64,000 bases of DNA from an uncultured Myxococcales bacterium. GTDB lineage: Bacteria > Myxococcota_A > UBA9042 > DTJE01. Below the pieces are notes generated by a model that was not told where the DNA came from, made no database searches, and worked only from the letters and a program-made list of their open reading frames with translations. The position numbers and the translations under genes were made by a program. The stretch is taken from assembly GCA_937975765.1 (NCBI GenBank), contig CALJUR010000121.1, forward strand, positions 92,296-156,295, written 5' to 3'. Below are positions 49,515 to 60,826 of this stretch, piece after piece. Position 1 is the stretch's first letter. The number at the start of each line of letters is the position of its first letter.

Positions 49515-50042
49515 TTACGCCGCCTGCTCCGACAACTGCCGCTCGCGAGCCGCCAGGACGCCCACGAAATCCCGTGCCGGCGCCTGCAGGACGCCGAGGA
49601 ACTTCTTGGGCACGCCGACCAGCGCGCCGAGCAGCATCCCCTTGAGGACGTCCGCCGAGGGGAGGGCCGCCAGCGCCTTCAGCTGCGCCTCTCCCATCGG
49701 GCTGGTCCCCAGGCTGCCGCCCACCACCTGAACCTTGGCCACGCCCTTCAGGAGCGTGGTCAACGCCTTCGCGAACGCCGCCGGGTCCTCGTTGGTGTAT
49801 GCCACCGTCAGGGGACCCTTCAGCGAATCCGCGAAGAAGGCCCAAGGCGTCCCTTCCACAGCACGCGCGAACATGGTGTTCTTGATCACGCGGAAATGGC
49901 CGCCTTCCTTGCGGAGGGCACGCCGCATCGACGTGTTCGTCTCCATGTTCAGCCCGTTCTGGGCCAGGAGCACCATGGCCTTGGCGGAGTTGAGGATGTC
50001 CGACAACTCCGCGACCGCCGCCTTCTTCTGCTCCAGGTTCAT
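49515..50042 (-). CDS. rplJ: 50S ribosomal protein L10
   Basis: The product reads [31 protein letters not shown]... and is full length. Confidence 0.95.
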
Positions 50043-50267
50043 CGTCTCATCTCCAATCGCGAGACTCCCGGGCCAGCGGCTGCCCTCAGGCAGGGGGAGG
50101 GGGACAACACACGTACGTGCTTCCCGAATCCACCGCCTCCGCCGGTCCTACCCGCCCCCTGCCGGGAGCGGCGCCGACTTCTCGGGCAGCTCGAACACAA
50201 CCCCGTCCGGCGCCTTCGCATCGCGCCGCGCGGGGATCGGAACCAGGTTCTCAACGGAACACGGGCC
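50043..50267 (-). promoter_or_regulatory. rplJ leader region (expected L10(L12)4 autoregulatory leader)
   Basis: A 225-nt untranslated spacer lies between rplA and rplJ. This is the conserved position of the L10 leader. No motif was verified. Confidence 0.35.
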
Positions 50268-50975
50268 TCACTTCGAGGCCTTCAGCGCCACTTCCACGTC
50301 CGACGGGTCGATCCGGATGCCGGGGCCCATCGTGCAGGACATCGTCACGCTCTTCACGTACGTGCCCTTGACCGTGGACGGCTTCAGCTTCAGCAGCGTC
50401 TCGGCGATCGCCAGGAAGTTGTCCTTCAACTGCTGCGGCGTGAAGGACCTGCGGCCGATCGTCGTGTGGATGATGCCGTTCTTGTCGACGCGGAACTCGA
50501 CCTTGCCGGCCTTCGACTCGCGGACGGCGCGACCGACGTCCATCGTGACCGTGCCGACCTTCGGGTTCGGCATCAGGCCGCGGGTGCCCAGCAGCTTGCC
50601 CAGCTTGCCGACCAGGCCCATCATGTCGGGCGTCGCGATCGCCTTGTCGAACTCGAACCATCCGGTCTTGATCTTCTCGGCCAGGTCCTCGGCGCCCACG
50701 AAGTCGGCGCCGGCGTCCTGGGCCTCCTTGGCCTTGTCGGCCTTGGCGAAGACCAGCACGCGGGTGACCTTGCCGGTACCGGCCGGCATGACGCACGCGC
50801 CGCGGACCATCTGGTCGGCGTGCTTGGGGTTGACGCCCAGCCGCACCGCGATGTCCACCGACTCGTCGAACTTGGCGAAACCGGTCTTGCCGACCAGGTT
50901 CACCGCCTCCTCGATCGTGATCTTCTTCTCGCGATCGACCAGGCCCAGGGCCGCCTTGAACTTCTTGTCAGGCAT
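50268..50975 (-). CDS. rplA: 50S ribosomal protein L1
   Basis: The product reads [28 protein letters not shown]... and is full length. Confidence 0.95.
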
Positions 50976-51016
50976 CCTATGTGCTCCTCGCCTCCCTCAG
51001 GCAGGCCGCATGGTGG

Positions 51017-51442
51017 CTAATCCACCACCTCGATGCCCATGGAACGGGCCGTGCCAGCCACGGTCCGCATGGCGCCTTCGAGGTCCACGGCGTAGAGGTC
51101 CGGCATCTTCACCTGCGCGATCTTCGCCACCTGCTCCTTCGTGATCTTCCCGACCTTGTCGCGGCCGGGAGCCGTGGAGCCCTTCTCCAGGCCGGCCGCC
51201 TTGCGGACCTGCTCGGAGACGGGGGCCGTCTTGGTGACGAAGGTGAACGAACGGTCCGAGAAGACCGTGATCACGACCGGGACGGTGGAGTCGCCCAGGG
51301 AGGCCGTTCGGGCGTTGAACGCCTTGCAGAACTCCATGATGTTCGCGCCGGCCTGGCCCAGCGCCGGTCCGACCGGGGGCTGGGGCGACGCCTTGCCCGC
51401 CTTGATGTGCAGCTTGATCTGACCGACGATCTTCTTTCCCAT
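51017..51442 (-). CDS. rplK: 50S ribosomal protein L11
   Basis: The product reads [32 protein letters not shown]... Confidence 0.95.
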
Positions 51443-51454
51443 GGTGGCTCTCTC

Positions 51455-51991
51455 CTAGACCCGCTCGACCTGGTTGAAGTCCAATTCGACCGGAGTAGCG
51501 CGACCGAAGATGGTGACCAGGACGCGGACCTTCCGCTTCTCGGCCTTGACCTCCTCGATGATCCCCGAGAAGTTCACGAACGGCCCGTCCTTGATCCGGA
51601 CCGCCATCCCCTCCTCGAACTGCACCTCGGCCACGGGCCGGACCTGCCCCTGCTCCATCTGGTGCCGGATCTGGTCGACTTCCTTCTCGGACAGCGGCCG
51701 CGGGCCGCGATCGTTCCCCACGAATCCCGTCACGTTCGGACGGTGACGGATGAAGTGGTGCGTCTCGTCGTTCAGGTCCATCTGGACCAGGATGTAGCCC
51801 GGGAAGAACTTCCGACGGCCGCCGGGGCGCTTCTTCTCGCCTTCCGCGGGCGGGGGCTCCATCGGGACGATGATCTCCCCGATGTGCTCGAACACGGTCG
51901 GACCCTCGCGCTTCATCTGGTCAAGGATGTCGGCCTTGACCTTCTGCTCGAAGCCCGAATAGGTGTGGACCACGAACCACTTCATCGGCAT
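51455..51991 (-). CDS. nusG: transcription termination/antitermination factor NusG
   Basis: It has the NGN domain (WFVVHTYSGFEQKV) and a KOW motif (VRIKDGPFVNFSGIIEEV). Confidence 0.95.
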   Translation of the reverse strand: MPMKWFVVHTYSGFEQKVKADILDQMKREGPTVFEHIGEIIVPMEPPPAEGEKKRPGGRRKFFPGYILVQMDLNDETHHFIRHRPNVTGFVGNDRGPRPLSEKEVDQIRHQMEQGQVRPVAEVQFEEGMAVRIKDGPFVNFSGIIEEVKAEKRKVRVLVTIFGRATPVELDFNQVERV

Positions 51992-52004
51992 GTCCGACTC
52001 GGCC

Positions 52005-52382
52005 TCACAGGCGGTAGATGACGCTGGTCAACGCACCGATGACCGCGTCGAACAGGCCCAGGATCGCCGAGACCACGACCGTCGTCACGATGACGACGAT
52101 GGTGGAGACGCGCGTCTCAGGCCACGTGGGCCAGGTCACGTTGCGCAACTCGCTCGCGACCTCCAGGCCGAACTTGTTGATCGGCTCCGAGAACCACAGG
52201 TACAGCACCGATCCGACACCGACCAGCAGGCCCAGCAGGTCGCTGACCGCGAACCGCACGCCCAGCAGGGGCCGGTTCAGGTTCGGATTGATCCAGTCGA
52301 TCACGGTGCCGAAGAAGGCCGCCACCAGGACCCACACCAGGATCCCGATCACCATGAACGAGAGGCGAACGTATTTGTCCAA
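52005..52382 (-). CDS. secE: preprotein translocase subunit SecE (three-transmembrane long form)
   Basis: It has three hydrophobic helices and the conserved C-terminal ELRNVTWPTW...V amphipathic helix and transmembrane segment. It sits in the canonical tRNA-Trp-secE-nusG context. Confidence 0.85.
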   Translation of the reverse strand: MDKYVRLSFMVIGILVWVLVAAFFGTVIDWINPNLNRPLLGVRFAVSDLLGLLVGVGSVLYLWFSEPINKFGLEVASELRNVTWPTWPETRVSTIVVIVTTVVVSAILGLFDAVIGALTSVIYRL

Positions 52383-52429
52383 CGGGGCCCCCTCGTCAAA
52401 TCACCGGTCGTCCGTCGACCGGCCTCACT

Positions 52430-52505
52430 GGCAGGGCAGGAGGGATTCGAACCCCCAACCCGCGGTTTTGGAGACCGCTGCTCTACCGTTAGAGCTACTG
52501 CCCTG
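52430..52505 (-). tRNA. trnW: tRNA-Trp (anticodon CCA), 3' CCA encoded
   Basis: It forms a cloverleaf: acceptor AGGGCAG/CTGCCCT, anticodon loop CTCCAAA, T-arm GGGGGTTCGAATCCCTC. Confidence 0.85.
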
Positions 52506-52564
52506 TCGAGGCCCGCCCGTTCCCGGGCCGGCCCCGCAATGCCGGCAGCCCGCCACCCCAGGGA

Positions 52565-52747
52565 CTACTTCACTTCCTTGAAGGTGGTGTGCTTGCGCTC
52601 GAACTTGCAGTACTTCTTGATCTCCAGCCGGGCGGTCGTGGTCTTCTTGTTCTTCTCGGTCGCGTAGCGCGCCACGCCCGGGAGACCGCTCTTGCGGCAC
52701 GACTGGCATTCCAGCTGGATGTTGACCCGGTTTTCCTTCTTCGCCAT
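52565..52747 (-). CDS. rpmG: 50S ribosomal protein L33
   Basis: The product reads MAKKENRVNIQLECQSCRKSG...KYCKFERKHTTFKEVK. Confidence 0.9.
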   Translation of the reverse strand: MAKKENRVNIQLECQSCRKSGLPGVARYATEKNKKTTTARLEIKKYCKFERKHTTFKEVK

Positions 52748-52814
52748 CGTTCGTCTCCCGGGGCCCGCGACGCCCTCGCGGTCGCCGCGGACTGCCCGTC
52801 AGGTCAAGAACACG

Positions 52815-54008
<1,194 letters not shown>

Positions 54009-54088
54009 GACCCTTCCTCCTCAGGTTTCCGTCCCAACCAACACGACCGGCCTCTCCGGTCGCCTGACCGGAACCGGGCCTGCTCACC

Positions 54089-54163
54089 GGAGCCTTCGAT
54101 CGGAATCGAACCGATGACCCCGTCCTTACCAAGGACGTGCTCTGCCGACTGAGCTACGAAGGC
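54089..54163 (-). tRNA. tRNA-Thr (anticodon GGT); CCA not fully encoded
   Basis: Acceptor GCCTTCG/CGAAGGC, anticodon loop TTGGTAA, T-loop GGTTCGATTCC. Confidence 0.8.
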
Positions 54164-54188
54164 CTAACTCACGCCCGGCCCTTGCGCA

Positions 54189-54263
54189 GGAGCGGGAAAC
54201 GGGATTCGAACCCGCGACGTCGAGCTTGGAAGGCTCGCGCTCTACCAACTGAGCTATTCCCGC
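54189..54263 (-). tRNA. tRNA-Gly (anticodon TCC)
   Basis: Acceptor GCGGGAA/TTCCCGC, anticodon loop CTTCCAA, T-loop GGTTCGAATCC. Confidence 0.8.
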
Positions 54264-54346
54264 CCGAGTACGGACCCGTCCTTCCCAGGACCGAGTACCG
54301 TGAAATTCAAAGAACCGCGAACCCAGGCACCGCGACAACCGTTCAG

Positions 54347-54429
54347 TGGAGGGGGGAGGATTCGAACCTCCGAAGCCTACTGGCGGCAGATTTACAGTCT
54401 GATCCCTTTGACCACTCGGGAACCCCTCC
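54347..54429 (-). tRNA. tRNA-Tyr (anticodon GTA) with a long variable arm
   Basis: Acceptor GGAGGGG/CCCCTCC, anticodon loop CTGTAAA, long variable stem CGCCAGTAGGCTTCGG. Confidence 0.8.
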
Positions 54430-54456
54430 GCGCCGAAAACGCGCGCCCTCGGCGGG

Positions 54457-54529
54457 AGCTGGCGACGGGAATCGAACCCACAACCGCCTGATTACAAATC
54501 AGGTGCTCTGCCGATTGAGCTACGCCAGC
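54457..54529 (-). tRNA. tRNA-Thr (anticodon TGT)
   Basis: Acceptor GCTGGCG/CGCCAGC, anticodon loop TTTGTAA, T-loop GGTTCGATTCC. Confidence 0.8.
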
Positions 54530-54756
54530 CTGCAAAGAACCAGCCCCTTCAAAGGGCGATTGATTATGGTGGACGAGGGCGATCCTGTCAATCGCTTTTT
54601 TCGTCCGGGCGGCCAGGCCGCGGACGGGGAGGATGCGTCAGAACCGCGCCGTTGTCAAGCCCTGTCTTGCGGCCGGGCGCCTGCCTTTCCCCCGCCGCCT
54701 TGGTACCCGTCCGCCGCGTCGTGTAGACTGGGGCCGTCCCGAAAGAGGAGGGCGCC

Positions 54757-55464
54757 GTGCGCTGGTCGATGCCGTCAACACTGTTCGCGGTGGCCGTTCT
54801 GGCCATCCCCGCCTGCAAGGGGGACAAGAGCCTCTGCGACCGGGTGGAGGACCGGCTGCGCGACTGCGGCCTTCTGTCCGAGGGGCGGTTCGAGTGCCAG
54901 GAGTTCGAGATCGACGAGTGGGACTGCCTGGTGAACTGCGAACTGGACGCGACGTGCGAGGAGATCCGGGCGATCGAGTGCGACGACGAGAAGGTCGCTT
55001 CCGTCACGGAATGCCAGCAGGACTGCATGAAGAGACTGGGGTTCACCTGCAAGGACGGGTCCGAGGTGCTCCTCGGCCTGCAGCGATGCGACGGCGACGA
55101 GGATTGCGACGACGGCTCGGACGAGGCGGACTGCCCGACCTTCCAGTGCAAGGACGGGAAGGCCACGGTGATGCAGTACCAGACCTGCGACTGGCGCGAG
55201 GACTGCGACGACGGCTCGGACGAGGCCGGCTGTCCCGGGTTCGTATGCGCGAACGGCAACCGGGTGACCGCGGACTCGGTCTGCAACGGCCGCCGGGACT
55301 GCCTGGACAACTCGGACGAGGCCGGCTGCCCGGTGTTCACGTGCCGGGACGGCAAGCAGGAGATCTCCGAGGCCCTGCACTGCGACGGCGACGAGGACTG
55401 CGACGACGGCTCGGACGAGGCCGGCTGCCCGCCCGTCGCCGAACTGGTCTGCCCTTCGTCGTAG
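54757..55464 (+). CDS. lipoprotein with four LDL-receptor class A-like (CDGxxDCxDGSDExxC) modules
   Basis: The lipobox is LFAVAVLAIPACKG. Four repeats match the LDLa calcium-cage consensus (CDGDEDCDDGSDEADC, CDWREDCDDGSDEAGC, CNGRRDCLDNSDEAGC, CDGDEDCDDGSDEAGC). The start is a GTG with AGGAGGG 5 nt upstream. Confidence 0.7.
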   Translation: MRWSMPSTLFAVAVLAIPACKGDKSLCDRVEDRLRDCGLLSEGRFECQEFEIDEWDCLVNCELDATCEEIRAIECDDEKVASVTECQQDCMKRLGFTCKDGSEVLLGLQRCDGDEDCDDGSDEADCPTFQCKDGKATVMQYQTCDWREDCDDGSDEAGCPGFVCANGNRVTADSVCNGRRDCLDNSDEAGCPVFTCRDGKQEISEALHCDGDEDCDDGSDEAGCPPVAELVCPSS

Positions 55465-55501
55465 CGCCCAGGGAATTGCAGGCGGAGGACGGGGCCCTGC
55501 C

Positions 55502-56128
55502 CTACGGAAGGCCCAGGTCCATCCGGGCCTCTTCCGAGGCCATCGTGCGGGGATCCCACGGCGGGTCCCAGACCAGCTCGACCGAGGCGTCCTCGACGCC
55601 GACCGCCAGCAGCGCGGCCTGCCGGACGGCCTCGACCAGCCAGGGGCCGACCGGGCACATCGGCGACGTCAGCGTCATCCGGATCGAGGCCTGGCGGCCC
55701 GTCCCGTCCAGTTCGATCCCGTAGATCAGCCCCAGTTCGGCCAGCGACAGGCCCATCTCGGGGTCCATCACCTGCCCGACGTGCTCCCGGACGTCCTCGA
55801 CGCGGGCGGGCGCCGCCGGCCGGGACGCGGCGTCGGCCAGCCGCGCGCGGGCCTCGGGAGTGGCCATGGCCTCGGGGAGCCAGGGCGGGTCCTTCACGAA
55901 CTCCAGCCGGCCATCGTCGAAGCGGCCCGCGGACTCGATCGCCGTCCGGATCGCGGCGATCAGCCGCCGGGCGCGCGGCACCTGCGCCACCCGCACCACC
56001 GCGCAGCGGCCGTCCGGGGTCACGTCGGCGTCGAAGACCAGGCCCAGGTCGGTGATCGAGGCGCCGGTCTCGGGGTCGATCACCTGCGACAGCGCCCGGT
56101 ACAGGGCGTCACGGGGACGGGCTTCCAT
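55502..56128 (-). CDS. tandem DUF59 (MIP18/SufT-like) Fe-S assembly protein
   Basis: There are two DUF59 repeats (ALSQVIDPETGASITDLGLV... and VGQVMDPEMGLSLAELGLIY...TLTSPMCP). It sits at the distal end of the suf operon. Confidence 0.75.
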   Translation of the reverse strand: MEARPRDALYRALSQVIDPETGASITDLGLVFDADVTPDGRCAVVRVAQVPRARRLIAAIRTAIESAGRFDDGRLEFVKDPPWLPEAMATPEARARLADAASRPAAPARVEDVREHVGQVMDPEMGLSLAELGLIYGIELDGTGRQASIRMTLTSPMCPVGPWLVEAVRQAALLAVGVEDASVELVWDPPWDPRTMASEEARMDLGLP

Positions 56129-57860
56129 CGGTTGCCTCCGCGGGGCCCCGGGGCTCCAGGGCCTCCTCCAGGGTGGTCCAGGCCAGCAGGGCGCACTTGA
56201 CCCGGACGGGCAGGTCCTTCACCCCCCGCAGGGCGTTCAGGTCGCCCAGGTCCAGGTCGGCCGGCAGCGGCTCGCCGCGGAACATCGCCTTCACGCCGCG
56301 CAGCAGCCGCCGGGCCTCGTCCAGCGTGCGCCCCCGCAGGCGCTCGGCCAGCATCGATCCCGAGGCGACCGAGATCGAGCAGCCGTGCCCGACGACCTGC
56401 AGGCCCTCGATGCGGCCGTCCTCGGTGTGCAGGCGCAGCGTCACCTCGTCGCCGCACAGGGGATTCTTCCCGTGCCACTCGACCGACGGGCCGTCGATCG
56501 GCTCGCGCCCGGCCGGGTGCAGGTAGTGGTCCAGCACGACCTCCCGGAACAGTTCGTCGTCCGGGGCCGCACCGTGCAGGGAGGCGGCGGAAACGGTCGC
56601 TGGCCCGGGCCGCAGGGAAGACGCGGCGGACCGCGGGGCACGGGCACGGGCGACCTCGGACACCGCGTCGGCCAGCGCCTCGACCTCGGCCTCGGTGTTG
56701 TACAGGTAGAACGACGCCCGGGTGGTCGCCGGCACGCCGTACCGCGCCATCAGCGGCTGGGCGCAGTGGTGGCCGGCCCGGACCGCGATGCCCCTCGCGT
56801 CCAGCGCCTGCGCCACGTCGTGAGGGTGGACGCCGTCCAGCACGAAGGTCGCGACGCCGCCGGTCGCGTCCGGGCCGGGCGGGGGCCCCAGCAGGCGCAG
56901 GCCCGGGATGACCGACAGCCGCTGCCGGGCCAGGGTGCCCAGCCTCAGGTCGTGCCCCGCGATGTCCGGCATCCCCGCCGCGCGCAGGTAGTCGATCGCC
57001 GCCCCCAGCGCCACGGCGCCCGCCACGTCCGGCGTTCCCGCCTCGTACCGCCAGGGCGGGTCGGCCCAGGTCGCGTCGGCCAGCGTCACTTCGCGGATCA
57101 TCTCGCCACCGCCCAGGAACGGGTCCATCTCGTCGTAGCGGTCGGGCCGCACCACCAGCACGCCCGTGCCCGTCGCCCCCAGCATCTTGTGGCCCGAGAA
57201 GGCCAGGAAGTCGGCACCCAGGGCGGCCACGTCGACCGGCAGGTGCGGGACCGCCTGCGCGCCGTCGACCAGCACCGCCGCACCCGCGGCGTGGGCCAGC
57301 CGGGCGATGTCCGCGACCGGGTTGATCGTGCCCAGCACGTTCGACACGTGCGTCACGGCGACCAGCCGGGTCCGGGGAGACAGCAGGCCCTGCAGCGCGT
57401 CGAGGTCCAGCCGCCCGTCGTCCGTCACGGGCACGGCCCGCACCCGGGCCCCGGTGCGCCGGGCCAGCAGGTGCCACGGCACCAGGTTCGAGTGGTGCTC
57501 CATCCCGGTGACCAGAACCTCGTCCCCCGCCTGCACGTTGCGGTCGCCCCAGGCCCGGGCGACCAGGTTGATCGCCTCGGTCGCGTTGCGCACGAACACG
57601 ACTCCGGCCGGCGACGGGGCCGACACGAACGCCGCCACCTTCGTCCGGGCGGCCTCGTACTCGCGCGTGGCGTCCTCGGCCAGGCGGTGGATGCCGCGGT
57701 GAACGTTGGCGTTGGCCGTCTCGTAGTACCGGACCAGCGCGTCCAGCACGGCCCGCGGCTTCTGGGAGGTGGCGGCGCTGTCCAGGTACACCAGCGGCTT
57801 CCCGTTCACCGGCCGCGACAGGATCGGGAAGTCGGCCCGGATGCGCTCGACGTCCAGCAC
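56109..57860 (-). CDS. sufS: SufS cysteine desulfurase fused in frame to a SufU/IscU-like domain
   Basis: The N-terminal ~410 aa is group-II cysteine desulfurase (YLDSAATSQKP, SGHKMLGATG, HHC). After about a 35-aa linker comes SufU (EVVLDHYLHP...NPLCGDEVTL...GHGCSISVASG). No stop or credible internal start separates them. The start is a GTG with GAGGGGG upstream. Confidence 0.7.
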   Translation of the reverse strand: MLDVERIRADFPILSRPVNGKPLVYLDSAATSQKPRAVLDALVRYYETANANVHRGIHRLAEDATREYEAARTKVAAFVSAPSPAGVVFVRNATEAINLVARAWGDRNVQAGDEVLVTGMEHHSNLVPWHLLARRTGARVRAVPVTDDGRLDLDALQGLLSPRTRLVAVTHVSNVLGTINPVADIARLAHAAGAAVLVDGAQAVPHLPVDVAALGADFLAFSGHKMLGATGTGVLVVRPDRYDEMDPFLGGGEMIREVTLADATWADPPWRYEAGTPDVAGAVALGAAIDYLRAAGMPDIAGHDLRLGTLARQRLSVIPGLRLLGPPPGPDATGGVATFVLDGVHPHDVAQALDARGIAVRAGHHCAQPLMARYGVPATTRASFYLYNTEAEVEALADAVSEVARARAPRSAASSLRPGPATVSAASLHGAAPDDELFREVVLDHYLHPAGREPIDGPSVEWHGKNPLCGDEVTLRLHTEDGRIEGLQVVGHGCSISVASGSMLAERLRGRTLDEARRLLRGVKAMFRGEPLPADLDLGDLNALRGVKDLPVRVKCALLAWTTLEEALEPRGPAEATDGSPSP

Positions 57861-57870
57861 GGTCGCCCCC

Positions 57871-58179
57871 TCAGTCCACGGTGACCCACACCCGACCGTC
57901 CCGCACCTCGACCGGGTACGTCGCGACCGGCGCGCAGACCGGCATCCGGGTCGGGCGCCCCGTCGCAAGGTCCAGCGCACCGCCGTGGTGCGGGCACTGC
58001 CACTCCGTGTCGCCGATCCGCGTGCCGCCGAGAAGCGGGCGCTCCTCGTGACTGCACAGCCCGGACGTCGCGTACACGTGGTCCCCGACCCGGACCAGCA
58101 GGACCGGTTCGCCCCCGGCCTCCACCTGCACGCCCTCGCCCCCGGGCAGGTCGCCGATCGCCGCGACGTCGCACCGCAT
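57871..58179 (-). CDS. Rieske [2Fe-2S] ferredoxin-like protein
   Basis: The Rieske motifs are CSHEERPL and CPHHGG. Confidence 0.75.
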   Translation of the reverse strand: MRCDVAAIGDLPGGEGVQVEAGGEPVLLVRVGDHVYATSGLCSHEERPLLGGTRIGDTEWQCPHHGGALDLATGRPTRMPVCAPVATYPVEVRDGRVWVTVD

Positions 58180-58189
58180 CCGCCCCTCC

Positions 58190-59407
58190 TCACGCCTCGC
58201 CGGGGGCCCCGCCCTGCCCGGTCCGCGCGGCGGCCAGTTCCGACCGAAGGCGCTCCCGGGCCCGATCCGCCAGTTCGCCGGACGGCAGCCGCGACGCGAC
58301 CGGCTCGACGAAGCCCTCGACCAGCATCGATTCGGCCTGGTCGCGGGACAGCCCGCGGGTGCGCAGGTAGAACAGCGCCTCCTCGTCCACCGGCGCCACG
58401 GCCGCCCCGTGCGTGCACCGGACGTCGTGGTTCAGGATCTCCAGTTCGGGCAGCACGTCCGCCGCCGCCGTCCGGGACAGCAGCAGCGACCGTGCCTCCT
58501 CGTAGGCCTCCGACCGCGCCGCCCCCTCCCGGATGCGCAGCAGCCCCGTGAAGGCAGACCGCCCCCGGCCCAGCGCGATCGCCCGGTAGTCCACCCGGCT
58601 GCCGGTGTCGCCGGCGGCGTGGTCCGCCACGACCCGGAAGTCCGACCGGGCGCGGCCGCCCGCCAGCGCCAGCACCAGCCCCGCCGATCGCGCGCCCGGC
58701 CGCGACAGCACCGGGGCCGCCTCCGCCTTGACCCGGCCCGCCGGCAGCAGCACGTGGGCGTGGGTCAGGGAGGCGTCGCGCCCGACCTCGTAGGCCGAGC
58801 GGGAGAACAGGGACGTCCCCTTCGCGGCGGTCTCGAACCGGGCGTGCAGCAGCGTCGCGCCGTCTCCCAGCACCGCCTCGGTCACCGTGCTGGCGAATCC
58901 CGATCCGAGGTCCGCGTCCTCCAGCACCGTCGCCTCGGCGCCGGCCCCGATCCACAGCAGCGTCCGGCCGCTCGCGACCGTCCCCGCGGGCGCCTCGGGC
59001 CGGGCCTCCAGCCGGATCGGCCCGGCCAGCCGGACGCCTTCCGGCACCCGGATGACGGTCCCGCCCGCGAACGACGCCAGGTTCAGCGCCAGCAGCGGGT
59101 CGCCGTCCCCGGCCAGCCGGCCCAGGTGCTCCTCCAGCAGGCCCCCCGCGGCCGGCAGGGCCTCCCCGAAGGAAAGGGCCGTCACCCCGGCCCGCCGCGC
59201 CTCGTCCGGCAGTTCGACCCGCACCGGCCACGCCGCGCCCGCCGCCTGCAGGGCCGCCTCGATCCCCCCCGCGGGCAGCAGCGCCGCCGCGTCCGTGAAC
59301 CGGAAGCGGTGCCCCGACCGGTCGGGCAGGGGCATGGAGAGGGCCGCCGCGCGCGCCTGGTCGCGCCGCCGTGCCAGGAACGAAGGTTCGGGGTCGAATC
59401 GGTTCAT
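58190..59407 (-). CDS. sufD: Fe-S cluster assembly protein SufD
   Basis: It has the SufBD C-terminal domain (HAAVAPVDEEALFYLRTRGLSRDQAESMLVEGF). Its 405-aa length is typical of SufD. Confidence 0.85.
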   Translation of the reverse strand: MNRFDPEPSFLARRRDQARAAALSMPLPDRSGHRFRFTDAAALLPAGGIEAALQAAGAAWPVRVELPDEARRAGVTALSFGEALPAAGGLLEEHLGRLAGDGDPLLALNLASFAGGTVIRVPEGVRLAGPIRLEARPEAPAGTVASGRTLLWIGAGAEATVLEDADLGSGFASTVTEAVLGDGATLLHARFETAAKGTSLFSRSAYEVGRDASLTHAHVLLPAGRVKAEAAPVLSRPGARSAGLVLALAGGRARSDFRVVADHAAGDTGSRVDYRAIALGRGRSAFTGLLRIREGAARSEAYEEARSLLLSRTAAADVLPELEILNHDVRCTHGAAVAPVDEEALFYLRTRGLSRDQAESMLVEGFVEPVASRLPSGELADRARERLRSELAAARTGQGGAPGEA

Positions 59408-59416
59408 CGGGTCCCC

Positions 59417-60826
59417 CTATCCGACCGAGCCGGACATCTCCAGCCGGATCAGGCGGTTCAATTCCACCGCGTACTCCATGGGCAGTTCCTTCACGAACGG
59501 TTCGATGAAGCCGTTGACGATGGTCAGCGTCGCCTCCTCCTCCGTCAGCCCGCGGCTGCGCAGGTAGAAGACCTGGTCGTCGCCCACCTTCGAGACCGTG
59601 GCCTCGTGCCCGATCGACGCGTCCTCGCAGGCGATCTCCATCGTCGGATAGGTGTCGGACCGGGACGCCTCGTCCAGCAGCAGCGCATCGCACTTGACGC
59701 TGACCTTCGCCCCGTGTGCGTCCGGGTGCACCTTCACCAGGCCGCGGTACGAGGCCCGGCCCCCGTCCCGGCTGATCGACTTCGAGGTGATCGTGGAGGT
59801 CGTGTCCGGCGCGGCGTGGATCACCTTGGCCCCGGCGTCCTGGTGCTGGCCCGCGCCGGCGAACGCGATGGACAGCACCTCGCCGCGCGCCCGCGGGCCG
59901 ACCAGGTGGATCGCCGGGTACTTCATCGTCAGGCGCGACCCCAGGTTCCCGTCGACCCACTCGACCGTCGCGTCCTCGTGCGCCACGGCCCGCTTGGTGA
60001 CCAGGTTCAGCACGTTCCTCGACCAGTTCTGGATCGTCGTGTACCGGATGCGGGCGCCCTTCATCGCGATCAGTTCGACCACCGCCGCGTGCAGGCTGTC
60101 GGTGCTGTAGGACGGCGCGGTGCAGCCCTCGATGTAGTGCACCGACGAACCCTCGTCCGCCAGGATCAGCGTCCTTTCGAACTGGCCCATGTCGCGCCGG
60201 TTGATGCGGAAGTAGGCCTGCAGCGGGATCTTCACGTGCACGCCCTTCGGCACGTACAGGAAAGTGCCGCCGGACCAGGCCGCCGAGTTCAGCGACGCGA
60301 ACTTGTTGTCGTTCGGGGGGATCACCGTGCCGAAGTACCGGCGGACCAGGTCCGGGTGCTCGCGAAGCCCGGAGTCCATGTCCAGGAAGACCACCCCCTG
60401 CTTCTCGATCTCGTCCTGGATCGAGTGGTAGACGACCTCCGACTCGTACTGCGCCGACACGCCTGCCAGGAACTTCCGCTCGGCCTCGGGGATGCCCAGC
60501 CGCTCGAAGGTGTCCTTGATGCCCTGCGGCACCTCCTCCCAGGTCGTGCCCTGCCGGTCGGCGGGGCGCACGTAGTAGACGATGCGGTCGAAATCGATCC
60601 CGTCCAGGATCTCGCGGTTGCCCCATCGCGGCATCGGCCGCTCCCGGAACATCCGCAGGGCGTCCAGACGAAACTGCAGCATCCAGTCCGGCTCGCCCTT
60701 GATGGCGCTGATCTGCCGGACCACGTCCTCGTCCAGGCCGCGCCGGGTCTGGAACACGCTGCAGTCCTCGTCCGCGAACCCGTACCGGTACTCGCCGACC
60801 AGGTCGTGCGGGTTGCGTGCCTCCAT
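59417..60826 (-). CDS. sufB: Fe-S cluster assembly protein SufB
   Basis: It has the SufB signature [19 protein letters not shown] and C-terminal [13 protein letters not shown]. Confidence 0.9.

Follow-up and report, generated by a model that had tools for sequence, protein, structure and literature searches.

The window analysed here, a stretch of DNA of 64,000 nt, carries at 54757..55464 (+) an open reading frame that starts with GTG and encodes a protein of 235 aa with LDL-receptor class A (LDLa) repeats. Direct reading of the sequence locates a Shine-Dalgarno-like GGAGG (54747..54751, +) 5 nt before the start codon. The gene stands alone on the plus strand, between a tRNA/tuf cluster and the end of a suf operon that both lie on the minus strand. 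The preliminary description of this DNA had placed it immediately beside the tRNA-tuf cluster, and tRNA-Thr/Tyr/Gly/Thr and tuf are indeed found 226 bp upstream on the opposite strand. The suf side encodes, again on the minus strand, a protein with two FeS_assembly_P domains, a SufS-SufU fusion, SufD, SufB and SufC. The nearest of these genes (55502-56128, -) encodes a 208-aa protein whose two FeS_assembly_P (DUF59/MIP18) domains are arranged in tandem, and it converges on the LDLa gene with the two stop codons 37 bp apart. The next frame (56109-58100, -) joins a cysteine desulfurase (Aminotran_5, residues 104-476) to a NifU_N/SufU-like domain (519-600) without interruption and looks like a SufS-SufU fusion that ends a sufC-sufB-sufD-sufS/U operon. 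A near-consensus sigma-70 promoter (TTGACA-17 nt-CATAAT, 11/12) is present at 54563-54591 (-), directly ahead of the tRNA-Thr(TGT)/Tyr/Gly/Thr-tuf cluster and within the 226-bp divergent intergenic region that the cluster has in common with the LDLa gene. The same scan of this intergenic region found no consensus promoter for the LDLa gene itself, and no additional LDLa genes were found on scanning the 64-kb window.

The protein begins with a signal peptide (residues 1-19, MRWSMPSTLFAVAVLAIPA; 54757..54813, +) that consists of a basic n-region and a hydrophobic h-region and has low pLDDT in the structural model. Cys20 (54814..54816, +), the presumed lipid-modified +1 cysteine, is at least 90% conserved in an 89-sequence family alignment. 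It is followed by an N-terminal domain (N-domain; residues 21-95; 54817..55041, +) with four helices and nine cysteines, which agrees with the separate cysteine-rich region that had been noted ahead of the repeats. Four LDLa-like modules come next. Module 1 (residues 96-128; 55042..55140, +) contains Cys 98, 111, 117 and 126, and its putative Ca2+ ligands are D112, D116, D122 and E123; the corresponding residues of module 2 (residues 129-161; 55141..55239, +) are Cys 131, 144, 150 and 159 with D145, D149, D155 and E156. Module 3 (residues 162-193; 55240..55335, +) has Cys 164, 176, 182 and 191 and candidate ligands N177, D181, D187 and E188, and module 4 (residues 194-226; 55336..55434, +) has Cys 196, 209, 215 and 224 and candidate ligands D210, D214, D220 and E221. 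The C-terminal tail, VAELVC232PSS and the stop codon (55435..55464, +), adds a single cysteine, C232.

The repeats are real and belong to the LDLa class as judged by profile: Pfam PF00057 (Ldl_recept_a) matches four stretches with E=1.7e-22 and 79.7 bits against a cut-off of 24.1, so the four-repeat pattern is not a product of chance. Every repeat has exactly four cysteines and the core C-[DN]-x3-D-C-x-D-x-S-D-E-x-x-C. In this respect the initial reading of a genuine frame with four tandem repeats, each carrying four rather than six cysteines, was borne out for all four modules. Some details required adjustment. The repeats are tandem as claimed, with a period of 32-33 aa in place of about 35 aa; Tandem Repeats Finder reports a 99-nt period, 3.5 copies and 71% matches. 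The string CDDGSDEAGCP, said to recur perfectly three times, is exact in only two copies (at residues 150 and 215); CDDGSDEADCP stands in the third, and it is the shorter DCDDGSDEA that occurs three times. These shared strings had been ascribed to recent internal duplication or strong selection. Recent duplication of the repeats is rejected on the basis of their pairwise identities (45-64% in amino acids, 63-78% in nucleotides) together with the 71% matches above, and the selection half of that proposal is retained: the identical stretches are columns conserved throughout the family, and thus point to purifying selection on the cage.

LDLa modules are textbook parts of animal receptors, and the animal class is defined by six cysteines paired C1-C3, C2-C5 and C4-C6. 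The window modules depart from this definition, as each of them has four cysteines, C2, C4, C5 and C6, and is without the canonical C1 and C3. The best Pfam stretch, module 3, correspondingly covers profile positions 8-37 of 37, and in alignments to megalin C1 and its surrounding residues fall in a gap and C3 stands opposite a residue other than cysteine. By homology, each module would keep the C2-C5 and C4-C6 disulfides and would have lost the C1-C3 hairpin. A search of all PDB sequences with phmmer retrieved megalin/LRP2 (4e-51) and LDLR (2e-17), as well as VLDLR, LRP4 and complement factor I, and the DCxDxSDE core was matched column by column in the alignments. The likeness to the LA modules of animal LDLR, VLDLR, megalin/LRP2 and CD320 extends over the C-terminal lobe, C4-D-G-x-x-D-C5-x-D-G-S-D-E-x-x-C6 with its acidic Ca2+ ligands, and includes the hydrophobic residue (Phe) before C2, the β-hairpin with a one-turn helix at SDE, and the tandem arrangement. 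The differences are the missing C1, C3 and first disulfide along with about seven N-terminal profile positions.

The acidic side chains of the cage (D/N after C4, D before C5 and D-E before C6) are all present in the four modules, and the only substitution is Asn for Asp in repeat 3 (N177). In module 5 of LDLR, the side chains that ligate Ca2+ are reportedly Asp196, Asp200, Asp206 and Glu207, as described by Fass et al. in 1997, and equivalents of these residues occur in all four window modules. We infer from this correspondence that each module binds one Ca2+. In 635 canonically spaced modules from the family, C4+1 is D or N in 99%, C4+5 is D in 83% and C4+8 is D in 88%; since the selection pattern for these modules demanded the D-E pair, its conservation among them is not independent evidence. 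The residues that animal modules use for ligand capture are less well represented. Recognition of lysine is said to depend on an aromatic residue at C4-2 and an acidic triad at C4+1/+3/+5, as described by Fisher, Beglova and Blacklow in 2006 for LDLR LA3-4 (PDB 2fcw). The lysine-docking aromatic at C4-2, which is one of the differences from animal modules, is absent from the four window modules (Q, Q, S and L), and only modules 1 and 4 have the full acidic triad, Arg occupying C4+3 in modules 2 and 3. Canonical lysine capture by this protein may therefore be weak. In the family modules, C4-2 is aromatic in 57% and C4+3 is acidic in approximately 30%.

Structure prediction supported the same assignment at the level of fold. 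A single-sequence AF2 run was unusable (pLDDT 44), and the model discussed here was built on the 89-sequence family alignment; it reached a mean pLDDT of 91.9 and a pTM of 0.76, with 210 residues at pLDDT of at least 90. The four helices of the N-domain span residues 26-36, 53-63, 67-76 and 81-94, and each module is a β-hairpin that leads into a one-turn helix at the SDE motif. When this model was compared with the PDB by Foldseek, the top matches were all LA-module arrays, with a probability of 1.00 and 33-43% identity: megalin (E=2.4e-9), LDLR-apoB100, VLDLR-alphavirus, CD320 and the LDLR LA3-4/RAP complex (2fcw, E=5e-4). The profile match, the megalin alignment and the recognition of a confident model as an LA-module array thus uphold the central reading of the preliminary description, namely a probable exported bacterial protein with four LDLa-type calcium-cage modules. 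Of the two outcomes named there as refuting it, neither was seen: the LDLa profile match is significant, and no result contradicts a predicted cage arrangement of the acidic motif. Successive modules are joined by linkers of four residues of the form C6-P-x-F-x-C2, a form shared by 207/420 linkers in the family. The high pTM for a protein of five parts and these short, near-invariant linkers argue for a predicted module arrangement that is fixed and not beads-on-a-string, unlike the variable and flexible linkers of animal arrays.

The protein also differs from animal LA receptors in what accompanies its modules, since it combines a probable bacterial lipoprotein signal with an N-domain of novel type and a cysteine in the tail, and has no EGF domain, YWTD propeller or transmembrane segment. 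The nine cysteines of the N-domain comprise seven that are invariant in the family and an optional pair, C27 and C47. Across the family the N-domain has either seven or nine cysteines, always an odd number, and C27 and C47 are gained or lost together, which indicates a likely C27-C47 disulfide. The domain is recognised by the signature C-x3-C-x5-6-C-x6-9-C (C57/C61/C67/C75 in the window protein), and the window protein matches the N-domain profile with E=7.6e-14, a profile that includes the window protein itself. At least 605 clusters at 50% identity carry the N-domain, and LDLa modules always follow it. Its CX3C motifs on helix 2 (C57, C61) and helix 4 (C86, C90) are reminiscent of twin CX3C and CHCH-type hairpins (Tim10, CX9C) and could staple two antiparallel helices; the Pfam matches of the N-domain are single and non-significant (E 0.17-0.36), and this is a resemblance rather than membership.

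The presence of the N-domain is closely associated with that of the tail cysteine. Among the 120 homologues listed, a tail cysteine occurs in 97/97 proteins with the N-domain signature versus 2/23 without it (Fisher p=2e-21). Proteins without the N-domain (those of Nannocystis and those ending in DEADCP) terminate right after C6. The Nannocystis proteins (L002-L004) have a lipobox and three four-Cys modules with the same core, and differ in having a Thr/Gly-rich linker instead of the N-domain and no residues or tail cysteine after C6; it is this contrast that reveals the coupling of N-domain and tail. The tail cysteine lies 4 or 7 residues past C6, the same bimodal spacing as that from C6 to C2 of the next module, and therefore looks like the first cysteine of a truncated extra module. 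As the tail cysteine co-occurs with the N-domain and would balance its odd number of cysteines, the simplest reading is that the two are disulfide-linked and that the unit is thereby closed. In a series of single polypeptides (P0121-P0128, P0132-P0134 and P0137), two full units of N-domain, one to three LDLa modules and tail cysteine are arranged one after the other, each with its own tail cysteine and often with Gly/Ser-rich linkers between them.

Export and anchoring require closer consideration because the lipobox of this protein is atypical. The signal sequence has n- and h-regions of the usual kind, is hydrophobic and ends in LAIPAC20. A lipobox had been claimed for it; the hydrophobic region and the cysteine are there, and the I-P-A-C with Pro at position -2 departs from both [LVI][ASTVI][GAS]C and PROSITE PS51257. 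In homologues, the region equivalent to the window signal peptide ends in a canonical lipobox, and 156/227 family members conform to PS51257; the lipoprotein status of the window protein is accordingly drawn from family conservation. Without Cys20 the mature protein (approximately 216 aa, 12.5% Cys) has 26 cysteines, and with it 27. Given the conservation of the cysteine, the conforming lipoboxes of the relatives and the even count without Cys20, we consider it probable that Cys20 is lipidated despite the proline at -2. The other explanation is that signal peptidase I cleaves at A-I-P-A | C and releases a soluble periplasmic or secreted protein that is not a lipoprotein. It is favoured by the same proline, which breaks the lipobox consensus, and by an alanine at -1 that signal peptidase I can accept. 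Against it stand the conserved cysteine and the lipoboxes that precede the N-domain in most relatives, and an odd total of 27 cysteines fits a lipid-modified Cys20 better than a disulfide-bonded one; we regard it as unlikely. Lysine at +2 correlates with inner-membrane retention in Myxococcus xanthus, where it was found in 8/12 inner-membrane lipoproteins (PMC3222651). The residue at +2 is Lys in the window protein and mostly G, S or D in the family, and members may therefore not all be localised alike.

A word-indexed protein search returned 164 relatives, all of them with PF00057 and most of them 190-400 aa long, and the closest relative other than the protein itself is 48% identical. Named members are called LDL receptor domain-containing protein or hypothetical protein and come from Enhygromyxa salina, Sandaracinus, Polyangiales, and Myxococcota and 'Deltaproteobacteria' MAGs. 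The named relatives are Myxococcota or 'Deltaproteobacteria' MAGs. LDLa modules had been called rare in bacteria. Rarity is true only in a relative sense, as clustering at 50% identity gives this architecture at least 605 clusters, and NCBI already names members by the domain. Proteins from Enhygromyxa salina, Sandaracinus sp. and Polyangiales/Myxococcota MAGs (P0083, P0044, P0071 and P0013) show the family architecture of a lipobox, an N-domain with seven or nine cysteines, three or four four-Cys modules and the tail cysteine, although their identity to the window protein is only 36-40% and they owe their names to the Pfam domain alone. The four-Cys module, with two cysteines between successive cores, is found in all 120 listed homologues, and module number in the family varies from 2 to 6. 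A module subfamily in P0040, P0129 and P0135 has an extra cysteine pair at new positions (C-P-A-x-x-C-F-E-C ... C-D-C-x-x-x-C); these modules would be six-Cys modules with a third disulfide that is not the animal C1-C3.

A single-protein scan of GTDB genomes gave six loci, of which two are metazoan contamination; the scan added Nannocystis and a Polyangiaceae MAG. The two contaminated contigs, L006 (JBBQQG010000051.1, from a 'Candidatus Saccharimonadales' MAG) and L007 (CAXXBX010000069.1, from a 'Dehalococcoidia' MAG), have a GC of 0.42-0.44 and contain split six-Cys LDLa exons, stop-rich sequence between them, and microsatellites. They are metazoan DNA that was mis-binned into bacterial MAGs serving as GTDB species representatives.

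The existence of such contigs, and the 33-43% identity of the window modules to animal LA modules, make it necessary to ask whether the window gene is itself a recently acquired fragment of an animal LDL receptor or a eukaryotic contaminant of the assembly. Several features of the gene speak against this. It is located between bacterial tRNA/tuf and suf genes in a contiguous window, is preceded by a Shine-Dalgarno site and begins with a signal peptide of bacterial type, and encodes only modules of the four-Cys type, which are uniform in the bacterial family and unlike those of animals; at least 605 diverged bacterial clusters have the N-domain architecture. Comparison of base composition with neighbouring genes, suggested in the preliminary description, likewise gave no sign of horizontal acquisition, as the GC3 of the gene is 0.94 and that of tuf, rpoB, rpoC and suf genes is 0.95-0.98. 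Its total GC is lower (0.68 versus 0.75-0.78 in suf genes), and given a GC3 like that of its neighbours this difference reflects amino-acid composition rather than foreign origin. We therefore regard an animal source or contamination as extremely improbable, and a recent transfer from an animal as all but excluded. Over positions 50000-60000 of the window, total GC steps from approximately 0.62-0.69 in the ribosomal/tuf/tRNA/LDLa region to 0.74-0.79 in the suf operon; GC3 is 0.94-0.98 throughout, and the step is one of amino-acid usage and not of foreign DNA. As a marker of the organism itself, NusG points to an uncultured lineage of 'Deltaproteobacteria' type: its best match overall is 94% identical, the best named MAG reaches 74% and cultured Desulfosoma 55%.

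With these results, we propose an envelope protein that is exported, most likely anchored by a lipid, and made of a compact four-helix N-domain, four minimal LDLa modules and a short tail, from an uncultured high-GC organism of deltaproteobacterial or myxobacterial type. Apart from the lipid-bearing cysteine, its 26 cysteines would be enough for 13 disulfides, and the single tail cysteine would bond back to the N-domain and close the array into one unit. Each module would correspond to the C-terminal calcium-cage lobe of an animal class A repeat and fold around Ca2+ by means of the ligand side chains kept at C4+1 (D/N), at C4+5 (D) and in the D-E pair before C6, giving about four Ca2+ per protein. 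That the protein is an LDLa-module protein is, taken by itself, very probable; identity, architecture and the general reading of a Ca2+-loaded envelope protein are together still likely, with less assurance. Beyond this, by analogy with animal LA modules, the mature protein (58 D+E versus 20 K+R, pI of approximately 4) may act as a Ca2+-dependent platform, periplasmic or exposed at the cell surface, whose modules capture a cationic partner by their acidic faces. Candidate partners would be a Lys/Arg-rich protein, a polycationic peptide or a polyamine-like compound, bound in the mode of animal LA modules. We offer this role tentatively, as the most likely one.

The main alternative, little less likely than this capture role, is that the modules are purely structural, forming a rigid spacer or scaffold stabilised by Ca2+ and disulfides, or acting as a modest buffer or sensor of Ca2+ in the envelope, and that the N-domain is the working part. 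In line with this, conservation in the family centres on the cage and the cysteines, the ligand-pocket residues being poorly kept (the aromatic at C4-2 in 57%, the acidic C4+3 in about 30%) and neither feature being canonical in the window protein. The N-domain, always present with the tail, is moreover the family-specific element, and a module number that ranges from two to six is what a spacer would show. However, a chain with four Ca2+ sites would buffer poorly. In the modules, the variable N-terminal halves change rapidly around a fixed cage, a pattern typical of diversifying binding surfaces, as is the occurrence of tandem paralogues. Such paralogues of the LDLa lipoprotein family are found as three adjacent genes in L015 (5413-7756) and as two genes approximately 1.3 kb apart in L011 (213-2723). 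No conserved neighbour gene was present across the ten homologue loci examined, and genomic context therefore gives no hint at a partner. In L012 (4882-6624) and L013 (2547-4262), both Polyangiales-type, the LDLa gene is directly preceded by a DUF2330 (PF10092) gene; this DUF2330 gene is missing from the other eight loci and from the window. With two Polyangiales loci only, it was judged insufficient as a conserved neighbour, and its proximity possibly reflects lineage synteny and not a functional link.

Assignment of the Pfam domain is already routine, since automatic annotation makes it and NCBI names relatives by it. NCBIfam holds no family for the window protein, and full-text literature searches yielded neither a publication about bacterial LDLa lipoproteins nor an experiment on any member of the family. 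What appears to be undescribed is the uniform four-Cys minimal module, the N-domain family of at least 605 clusters, and the coupling of N-domain and tail cysteine. Taken together, these features define a large and diverged bacterial family that is built on a minimal four-Cys LDLa module and a Cys-rich helical domain, and that is apparently closed by a tail disulfide. No paradigm is changed by these findings, but they suggest that predators of the myxobacterial kind have in their envelopes an unexplored class of putative calcium-dependent binding proteins. A module of 33 residues with two predicted disulfides and one predicted Ca2+ may also offer a small and tractable model of the calcium cage.

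The four-Cys family further bears on where the LDLa module came from. As a speculation to which we assign little likelihood, the four-Cys module might be no degraded version of the animal repeat; it might instead be the original, minimal form of the calcium cage, at home in bacteria of Myxococcota type, from which the metazoan six-Cys module was derived by adding the N-terminal C1-C3 hairpin. The N-domain and tail disulfide might then shape the array into a closed ring that traps polycations at the envelope in a Ca2+-dependent manner. The LA modules of megalin bind aminoglycoside- and polymyxin-like drugs. If such a trap existed, its polycations could be cationic peptides or antibiotics of the aminoglycoside or polymyxin type.
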